Of a DNA stretch of 64,000 bases, positions 13,305 through 41,025 are shown one piece after another. Below the pieces are notes generated by a model that was not told where the DNA came from, made no database searches, and was given only the letters and a program-made list of their open reading frames with translations. Position 1 is the stretch's first letter, and each line of letters begins with the position of its first letter. Origin of the DNA: an uncultured delta proteobacterium (GTDB lineage Bacteria > Desulfobacterota > Desulfuromonadia > Desulfuromonadales > BM103); NCBI GenBank assembly GCA_963715335.1, contig CAVQRZ010000014.1, positions 160,001 to 224,000 on the forward strand, read 5' to 3'. A program made the translations under genes and the position numbers.

Positions 13305-13450
13305 GGGCTCCTCCCGTTTCGATGTATGTTCCAGTTAGCAGTATGGCAGGGAATGGTGAGGATGCAATTAAATCACTGGTCAGGGCAACAGGATGGTTCA
13401 TCTGTTGCCTTTTTCTTTGTACTCTGGAATTCAAAGATAAAACAAAAAGC

Positions 13451-13860
13451 AAAACCCGGGGGTTGCGCCCCCCGACTGCGCCTTACTCTTTTGCTGGCCC
13501 AAAAGAGTAAGCAGAAAAGGGCCTGCGCTGCGCTGGGCATGTCTGGCTCGAAAAGGCGGCAACCTCAATCCGGATCGTTCTAAACGATCAAGAGCCTACG
13601 CTTCCCCCGCAGGAGCCGAGGCTCTTGAGAGCCTCTCCTGCTGTGGAGGCTTGCGTCGGTAGGGGATGTTTTGGCTTTTCCCTGTAAATCACACGGAAAG
13701 GTCAGGCCCTTTGACACAGGGCCGGATCCCCATCAGCAAAGGTTGTTGAAGTCACAGAAATCCGGCAAAGGAGATGCCCTCCGCAAGGAGAAGGCACTTT
13801 TGCATACTTTTGTTGCCGGACAAAAGTATGGCGTCGGGCGGGACGCGACCCGCCGGTTTT
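13451..13860. repeat. ~410 bp structured non-coding repeat, copy 1 (MITE/REPIN-like element or structured RNA)
   Basis: Reverse complement of 40613-41025 (about 94% identical by manual alignment). Many hairpins; 12-bp inverted ends AAAAGCAAAACC/GGTTTTGCTTTT at 13445-13456 and 13855-13866. Confidence 0.92.
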
Positions 13861-13890
13861 GCTTTTAAGCATTTCAAGAACAAAGAACAA

Positions 13891-13918
13891 GGGCAACAGA
13901 TGAAACCCTCTGTTGCCC
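13891..13918 (-). terminator. Terminator hairpin after trpS
   Basis: GGGCAACAGA...TCTGTTGCCC 10-bp stem with a T-rich tail on the minus strand. Confidence 0.6.
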
Positions 13919-13952
13919 CTAATTTTTCTTCACTGAACCCTACGGTCAAAAA

Positions 13953-14918
13953 TCAGTAGACAAGTCCGGTTTTCTTCCGCACCTTGCGCAACGTCTTGCT
14001 CGCCGCCCAGCGGGCCTTCTCGGCGCCCCTGGCAAGAGTCGCCCGGAGACTGTCGGGGTTGGCGAGCAGTTCCTTGCGAGATTCAGCCTGCGGTGCAAAG
14101 TAATCCCGGACCGTTTCAAAGAGCTCCTGCTTGACATCGCCGAACGCCAGGCCACCGGCCTCGTATCTTTGCCTCAGGGCAGCATCACCAGCCTTGTCGA
14201 GAAAGAGACGGAAGATCTTGTAGACATTGCAGGCGTCAGGGTCTTTCGGGTCTTCGACCGGGATCGGTCCGGTGACAATGCGCATAATCTGTTTGCGCAG
14301 CGCCTTGTCCTCGGCGAACAGGTCGATGGTGTTGCCGTAGCTCTTGCTCATCTTCTGACCGTCGAGCCCGGGGACCGTGGCGACGTCGTCGTCAATTTCG
14401 GGCTCAGGCAGGGTGAAAATCTCGCCGTATTCGTTGTTGAACTTGATAGCGATGTCCCGTGCGACTTCGACGTGCTGCTTCTGGTCCTTGCCGACGGGGA
14501 CTTTTTCGCTCTGGAACAGCAGTATGTCGGCGGTCATCAGAACCGGGTAGGCGAACAGGCCATGATTGGCGGCGATCCCTTTGCCGACCTTGTCCTTGTA
14601 GCTGTGGCAGCGCTCCAGCAGGCCCATCGGCGTAAAGTTGGAAAGAATCCAGGTCAGTTCCTGGACCTCCGGCACGTCGGATTGCACCCAGAAGGTGCTC
14701 TTCTCAGGGTCCATGCCGAGCGCCAGGAAGTTGGCTGCCGCCTCGATGGTGCCGCGGGCGAGGGCCTTGCCGTCGCTGAGCGAGGTCTGGGCATGGTAGT
14801 TGGCGATGAAACAGAAAAGCTCGGACTCTTCCTGGTAGGCAATCATCTTCGACATCATGCCGAAGTAGTTGCCAAGGTGTAAAGAGCCGGAAGGTTGTAT
14901 GCCGGACAGAACGCGCAT
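13953..14918 (-). CDS. trpS: Tryptophanyl-tRNA synthetase
   Basis: SGIQPSGSLHLGNYFG (HIGH-like), YPVLMTADIL, VPVGKDQKQH and KMSKS. Confidence 0.97.
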   Translation of the reverse strand: MRVLSGIQPSGSLHLGNYFGMMSKMIAYQEESELFCFIANYHAQTSLSDGKALARGTIEAAANFLALGMDPEKSTFWVQSDVPEVQELTWILSNFTPMGLLERCHSYKDKVGKGIAANHGLFAYPVLMTADILLFQSEKVPVGKDQKQHVEVARDIAIKFNNEYGEIFTLPEPEIDDDVATVPGLDGQKMSKSYGNTIDLFAEDKALRKQIMRIVTGPIPVEDPKDPDACNVYKIFRLFLDKAGDAALRQRYEAGGLAFGDVKQELFETVRDYFAPQAESRKELLANPDSLRATLARGAEKARWAASKTLRKVRKKTGLVY

Positions 14919-40612: not shown

Positions 40613-41025
40613 AAAACCGGCGGGTCGCGTCCCGCCCGACGCCATACTTTTGTCCGGCAACAAAAGTATGCAAAAGTGCCTTTCTCCTTGCGGAGGGCAT
40701 CTCCTCTGCGGGATTTCTATGACCTCAACAGACATGCTGTAAGAGGATCCGGCCCTGTGTCAAAGGGCCTGACCTTTCCGTGTGACTTACAAGGGAAAAG
40801 CCAAAACATACCTCTACCTACGCAAGCCTCCACAGCAGGAGAGGCTCTCAAGAGCCTCGGCTCCTGCGGGGGAAGCGTAGACTCTTGATCGTTTAGAACA
40901 ATCCGGATTGAGGTTGCCGCCCTTCCGAACCAGACATGCCCAGCGCAGCGCAGGCCCTTTTCTGCTTACTCTTTTAGGCCAGTAAAAGAGTAAGGCGCAG
41001 TCGGGGGGCGCAACCCCCGGGTTTT
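40613..41025. repeat. ~410 bp structured non-coding repeat, copy 2 (inverted relative to copy 1)
   Basis: Reverse complement aligns end to end with 13451-13860; lies in the divergent ligA/corC-like intergenic region. Confidence 0.92.

Follow-up and report, generated by a model that had tools for sequence, protein, structure and literature searches.

What is a hairpin-dense, gene-less sequence of about 410 bp doing twice in one stretch of bacterial DNA, and by what means did it get there? The stretch (hereafter, the window) comprises 64,000 nucleotides from the draft assembly of an uncultured delta proteobacterium (genome G000), and a preliminary description made from its letters had claimed two intergenic copies of this sequence, about 94% identical and oppositely oriented. 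Positions and orientation are borne out: the core of copy 1 (13451..13860) and that of copy 2 (40613..41025) run in opposite orientation and share 385 of 410 aligned bases, i.e., 93.9%. Copy 1 follows a gene for a class I tRNA synthetase (W/Y family), and copy 2 is flanked by ligA and a CorC/HlyC gene; the claim that no credible ORF is present also stands, with no ORF longer than 70 aa inside the element. In three congeners (L023, L024, L025), the tRNA synthetase gene and the copy 1 site are separated by an additional frame that looks kinase-like by eye; the window is without it at 13420-13953.

The window's own genome holds 49 near-full copies, 76-97% identical to each other (median 90%), and 79 loci with at least one part of the element. 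DNA matches to it occur in 36 of 41 genomes, G000 included; the end-module model has matches in 45 of the 50 genomes scanned from the order and in 1 of 50 from the rest of the class, which makes the suggested lead to the multicopy repeats of Geobacter and Pelobacter a weak one; and the core pattern recurs in roughly 7,000 GTDB stretches (an estimate from 2 of 64 parts) from Pseudomonadota, Bacteroidota, Bacillota, and others. Plasmid and phage collections contained nothing that credibly matched the element, and the Rfam search that had been proposed gave no match that reached the gathering score, either for the window or for 17 related loci, with only chance-level matches for copy 1. That just two copies might exist without further covariation fails on these copy numbers and on the covarying helices described below, and an assembly artefact or simple duplication was rejected on copy number, on the presence of the element in other genomes, and on its turnover at shared sites. 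Elements favor gaps between convergent genes (34 of 74, versus 206 of 1,024).

Each core is a back-to-back pair of two different units; in copy 1 the L type lies on the minus strand and the R type on the plus strand. Their end modules, each about 95 nt long, are homologous to each other (score 74 versus 24 +/- 5 in shuffles) and the inner parts are not detectably related (20 versus 19 in shuffles), so that homology of whole half-units was rejected, the match being restricted to the end modules. The shared end architecture noticed earlier thus holds as homologous modules, but the strand that folds runs outward, not inward as had been read. Variation per column is 2-3% in the modules and 7-14% in most of the interior, and the copy 1 interior (13541..13773), two kept hairpins excepted, is three to five times as variable as the modules. 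The interior stems proposed before fared unevenly over the 49 copies: GAGGCTC (340 of 343 cells), GGCCCT (293 of 294), and CTCC/GGAG (196 of 196) are kept, but GATCGTT/AACGATC and GCAGGA/TCCTGC are poorly kept, with the reference pair in 228 of 343 and 232 of 294 cells, respectively. Two kept interior hairpins of copy 1 lie near 13618-13635 and 13706-13724. The same ends also enclose other interiors, and lone single units and arrays of pairs occur; of 74 adjacent module pairs in G000, 57 are divergent, and 55 of those 57 join unlike types. At L213 (G029) and L214 (G125), several pairs stand in a row with modules facing each other across 40-50 nt.

Read outward, a module consists of a small hairpin, a segment of 3-8 nt, a pyrimidine run, a long stem, two interlocked helices, and a T-rich tail, and the 3-8-nt segment is predicted to pair with the loop of the long stem, i.e., to form a pseudoknot. 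In the L-type module of copy 1 (13451..13540, minus strand), the long stem is 13482-13493/13500-13511, the pseudoknot helix joins 13520-13523 with 13496-13499, and a third strand lies at 13513-13518; the small hairpin, the interlocked terminal helices, and the T-rich tail fall within the same limits. The R-type module (13774..13860, plus strand) has a hairpin with a GCAA loop (13779-13790), a pseudoknot segment (13793-13796) pairing with the stem loop, a third strand (13798-13801), a long stem (13803-13812/13821-13830), and interlocked helices (13831-13854) followed by the T-rich tail. In copy 2, the R-type module occupies 40613..40700 (minus strand) and the L-type module 40936..41025 (plus strand). 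There, as had been pointed out, the loop-closing pair G13493-C13500 of copy 1 is replaced by an A-T pair (40976/40983), which is also found in 12 of the 49 genome copies.

These predicted contacts covary. Among 137 distinct modules from many phyla (four parser matches were dropped as spurious), the Watson-Crick helix of the first pseudoknot averages 4.56 bp, versus 3.25 +/- 0.09 with shuffled partners. Where the purine tract has an inner G, 27 of 29 modules, representing nine tract patterns, have C at the corresponding position of the third strand, and the third-strand match is 6.55 versus 5.38 +/- 0.15 when partners are shuffled inside this inner-G set; among the other 120 modules, 12 seem to deviate, and these are ten parser mis-splits and two modules with the C in the pseudoknot helix. 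Both helices of the second pair reach at least 4 bp in 58 of 66 modules of the order (three modules could not be anchored), versus 33% in base shuffles, and these two terminal helices may form a second pseudoknot or a switch. In an alignment of 27 sequences, in which the first hairpin is poorly aligned, 14 pairs of the named structure change on both sides and none of 500 shuffles reaches its score. All these shuffle figures are overstated, because the collecting pattern fixed the long stem and the kin are not independent. The fold energy is lower than that of all 100 shuffles, with z of -7.9 as RNA and -6.2 as DNA. The structure of the element is selected, as the preliminary description had supposed, and the support comes from the helices and the third strand together; it had overlooked the pseudoknots and the third strand, as well as a connection, discussed below, with TwoAYGGAY repeats.

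The pairing classes tell which strand folds. Among 72 distinct metagenome matches we counted T-A 46, T·G 18, C-G 8, and C·A 0, with a pattern that allowed either wobble and with 75 of 118 loci used; the contrast of 18 T·G with no C·A indicates that the folding strand is the one with the third strand first. A point on the other side is that A·C and G·T changes in the module stems of G000 are few and balanced. Three same-strand tracts that match as triples are what defines an intrastrand triplex repeat, and such tracts are predicted here from the letters; the module has the class IV order (third strand, pyrimidine, purine) on the folding strand and the class II order on the other. Class IV intrastrand triplexes can be formed by both RNA and DNA (PMC4666352).

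Whether the fold acts in RNA or in unwound DNA is a closer matter, and we lean slightly to DNA because of the loops of the first hairpin, which are C-GNA-G in 18, GNRA in 13, and GNYA in 4 of 58 cases. GCGNAGC and GCGNNAGC are reported as very stable DNA mini-hairpins whose RNA versions are far less stable, and hairpins of this sort have been found at single-strand priming sites (PMC13037366). The alternative, possible though doubtful in our estimate, is that each unit gives a structured RNA, synthesized outward from the center, whose pseudoknot and U·A-U/C·G-C triples would guard its 3' end or bind a protein, and whose copies would multiply by way of an RNA step or be spread passively. Loops of 0-1 nt that span 5-6 bp are better suited to A-form RNA than to DNA, T·G is tolerated in 18 of the 72 matches, and both modules end like terminators, the terminal hairpin with its T tract scoring as one; triples of the pyrimidine type are possible in RNA (PMC4666352), and PMC2864571 lists the related motif TwoAYGGAY as a probable RNA. 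The C-GNA-G and GNYA loops, however, exceed GNRA by 22 to 13, no sigma-70-like promoter was found inside the element and neither a sigma-54 nor a sigma-70 promoter in its center (partly by eye), and no reverse transcriptase was seen among 114 neighbor proteins scanned. Contig coverage of the element lies far above that of its flanks in four RNA-library runs, but it carries no weight on expression because it matches the copy number, the organisms are mixed, and the runs may hold DNA (one has a 62-kb contig).

Related genomes differ by gain, loss, and flipping of the element. Of nine sites that G000 and the congener G002 have in common, G002 lacks the element at four, has it collapsed at one, and has it present at four; the collapsed site is that of window copy 1, reduced to a terminal hairpin, and among the four present sites the element is once inverted inside its shell and once has a different left module. 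At the copy 1 site, the congener G003 has one flanking hairpin where G000 has two, and the copy 2 site holds a single unit in G004 and no unit in G001. Such presence and absence, inversion, and end-swapping support the earlier idea of a non-autonomous mobile element. A cis-encoded enzyme is not apparent: the 154 nearest ORFs show no recurring family, and among the 114 of them scanned with Pfam no transposase, integrase, reverse transcriptase, or HNH family came up. In agreement with the target-site duplication reported missing before, none is seen by eye at the core ends in 49 copies, and the 410-bp core has no combination of transposase-type terminal repeats with a short target duplication, so it is not a classical MITE.

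Outside the core lies a further layer that had escaped notice, made of A-rich arms and 27-bp hairpins, of which 82 of 84 lie within 300 bp of an element, while 26 of the 79 loci have no REP-like hairpin in their flanks. In copy 1 the left (13382..13411, with an A-rich arm joining the core) and right (13891..13918) REP-like hairpins of this shell are 28-30 bp long; copy 2 has neither such a layer nor an IS1182-type end. IS1182-type ends occur at 40 of the 79 loci, versus 145 of 2,000 random sites, and at both sides of 12 loci; the other 39 loci, including both window copies, have none. Five complete 1.6-kb elements in related genomes (L429, L430, L431, L432, L434) have ends that match the shell, and the two tested both encode IS1182-family transposases (NCBIfam NF033551). 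These 1.6-kb elements are inserted at the foot of terminator hairpins, L430 and L434 having a copy of the hairpin on each side, and several G000 composites (sites B, C, and F) likewise repeat the terminator hairpin on both sides; shell ends fall at the foot of a stem-loop in 26 of 52 cases, versus 63 of 500 at random. IS1182-family members that target stem-loops have been described (PMC5678879, citing Siguier et al.).

Is IS1182, then, what moves the element? The shell was matched only in the host's family (0 of 16 genomes of other families) and the module is found throughout the order, so IS1182 cannot be the general mover and serves as a vehicle locally. No cognate IS1182 transposase was found in the draft assemblies G000, G001, G002, and G004, and the congener G003 has a piece of an IS1182-type transposase element at a contig end. 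Two loci in G000 (L426:187-323 on C23 and L427:163-303 on C30) are shell-only units of about 136 bp, with IS1182-type ends, one 27-bp hairpin, and no core; they are targets or else products of deletion. Intergenic tandem repeats with a seven-base unit, in about 8-14 copies, occur at L427:390-470 and L218, one beside a shell and the other beside a module, and at L442:1502-1900 (G032) a lone IS1182-type end leads directly into short tandem repeats and then a RAYT-like gene. An intact IS5-family element (359 aa; L353:880-2230 on C6 of G000) was rejected as the mover, its ends being only loosely similar and its site of the TTAA type; a gene with recurring CxxC/H motifs appears to be interrupted by it, in pieces of 118, 107, and 222 aa.

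The hairpins of the shell raise the possibility, which we regard as improbable, that the element is REPIN-like and owes its movement to a RAYT/HUH transposase acting in trans by cutting the REP-like hairpins on its flanks. The tight placement of these hairpins around the element, the lone hairpin of G003 at the copy 1 site, and a few copies flanked by hairpins resembling those beside the two Y1 genes of G000 would fit, as would the REP arrays that stand at a fixed place behind TwoAYGGAY in SBW25 (bioRxiv 10.64898/2026.09.22.753630). Yet a search within 1.5 kb of 31 Y1 loci turned up no module, no 27-bp hairpin of the element's type was seen in 32 loci scanned, no REP of the element's class was found flanking a RAYT gene in the Y1 loci scanned, a third of the loci (the 26 of 79 above) have no REP-like hairpin to be cut, and Y1 matches are absent from G001, G002, and G003, of which G002 is rich in copies; the HUH/RAYT-like partner proposed in the preliminary description therefore finds no backing. 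The two RAYT-like Y1 genes of G000 (L021 on C10 and L022 on C9; 216-aa frames) are flanked by their own REP class, with about 30 copies, mostly on the same two contigs. TwoAYGGAY repeats (Rfam RF01731), which are defined by two hairpins whose loops read AYGGAY, bring in another candidate. According to a preprint, they are extended by a 3' pseudoknot, often form divergent pairs, and are tied to REP arrays, and their mover is not known, a role as Csr sponge being suggested (bioRxiv 10.64898/2026.09.22.753630). A pattern derived from our element retrieved Pseudomonas-type loci with the element's stem and pseudoknot 38-66 nt 3' of RF01731 matches on the same strand, the same was seen in 6 of 10 viral loci scanned, and model R1 scored TwoAYGGAY loci, pre-selected by pattern, at E of 1e-9 to 1e-2. 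The 3' module and the divergent-pair habit are thus common to both, which could suggest a multicopy CsrA/RsmA sponge here as well. AYGGAY is, however, absent from both strands of the element; RF01731 has no match in G000, G011, G029, and G101, versus 115 in the Pseudomonas control; and no CsrA gene was found in G000, G002, and G011 (the host's family), with one each in G029 and G101 (other families of the order). A sponge cannot explain an element that has no AYGGAY loops and in whose genome no CsrA gene was found; we regard this explanation as very improbable, and for G000 it is largely refuted.

The explanation we consider the most probable as a whole, with some reserve, is that of a high-copy, gene-less pair of pseudoknot-triplex units, likely a passenger of mobile DNA and recombination, with no enzyme of its own. 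In each unit, a single strand of the conserved module would, by prediction, adopt a pseudoknot combined with a triple helix. Beyond the observed counts, covariation, and turnover, we infer four steps. An IS1182 transposase would act in trans and move the 610-690-bp composite to the foot of terminator hairpins, often duplicating the hairpin; recombination or replication template-switching between the nested inverted layers would flip, swap, or collapse the core; pairs of unlike units would outlast perfect palindromes; and the fold in unwound DNA may serve as a polymerase-stalling or protein-binding site that promotes flips, swaps, collapses, and moves. A bolder reading, unlikely in our judgment, takes the module as the working core of an unrecognized cross-phylum class of self-copying non-coding elements, of which TwoAYGGAY would be one decorated branch: the folded strand might recruit a conserved host enzyme (primase, helicase, or polymerase) and drive fold-back duplication with no transposase of its own.

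Repeats of the TwoAYGGAY type reach copy numbers in the hundreds in single genomes, their function and mover are not known, and the published guess is a CsrA sponge. The present element keeps the 3' fold, goes without the CsrA-type loops, and is abundant where no CsrA is detectable. This suggests that the conserved part doing the work is the pseudoknot with its triple helix, and the question can thereby be addressed on a 95-nt construct. Base triples that covary in nature (C·G-C for T·A-T) provide evidence, seldom available, that a triple helix is under selection in bacteria, and the element is likely, in part, a case of a structured repeat carried by a terminator-seeking mini-transposon.

REPINs with their RAYT transposases have nested inverted layers, REP-like hairpins, and likely single-strand folding, and in all of these the element is like them; it differs in the absence of any RAYT link found and in a far more elaborate fold. 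IS1182-derived MITEs are approached by the outermost ends of the 40 loci, which match local IS1182 ends and stand at terminator feet, but this explains the shell only, as the 410-bp core has no IS1182 ends and also exists shell-less. PIT, BoxC, and TM-ECO repeats (PMC4666352) share with the element three matched tracts on one strand, intergenic location, multiple copies, and unstable sites; TM-ECO is a 37-nt G/C-rich class II motif (PMC4666352), and the element, in contrast, is A/T-rich, with only 4-9 triples that lie inside a pseudoknot and a module of about 95 nt, arranged in back-to-back pairs. The R200 repeat of Pseudomonas fluorescens (320 bp, 47 copies in SBW25; PMC2718517) comes close to the 48 TwoAYGGAY matches reported for that strain and has a bias to convergent gene gaps, so R200 repeats and TwoAYGGAY loci would appear to be the same, as compared by description, the R200 consensus being a picture only. 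Short motifs of the element were not found in 6 text files of PMC3543383 or in 12 of the 19 files of PMC2700814, where alignments may be pictures, and for the family or module only the works cited here came up, picture-only supplements possibly showing parts of it. With extended TwoAYGGAY repeats the element shares high and variable copy number, intergenic location, divergent pairs, REP-like flanks, and the 3' pseudoknot, and its module is probably that same pseudoknot, here without CsrA-type loops, as far as sequence comparison can tell. It differs in having no AYGGAY hairpins, no RF01731 match, and a host without detected CsrA, and in having a second interlocked helix pair and an IS1182-type shell; the 5-6-nt repeats that extended TwoAYGGAY loci have on their 5' side correspond to similar short A/T-rich repeats on the 3' side of the element (by eye), and the third strand and the host order go unmentioned in the preprint text on TwoAYGGAY available to us (bioRxiv 10.64898/2026.09.22.753630). 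The element thus behaves like TwoAYGGAY repeats, yet is not an RF01731 member; set against text descriptions of these kinds, it is a previously undescribed variant of the extended TwoAYGGAY/intrastrand-triplex kind.
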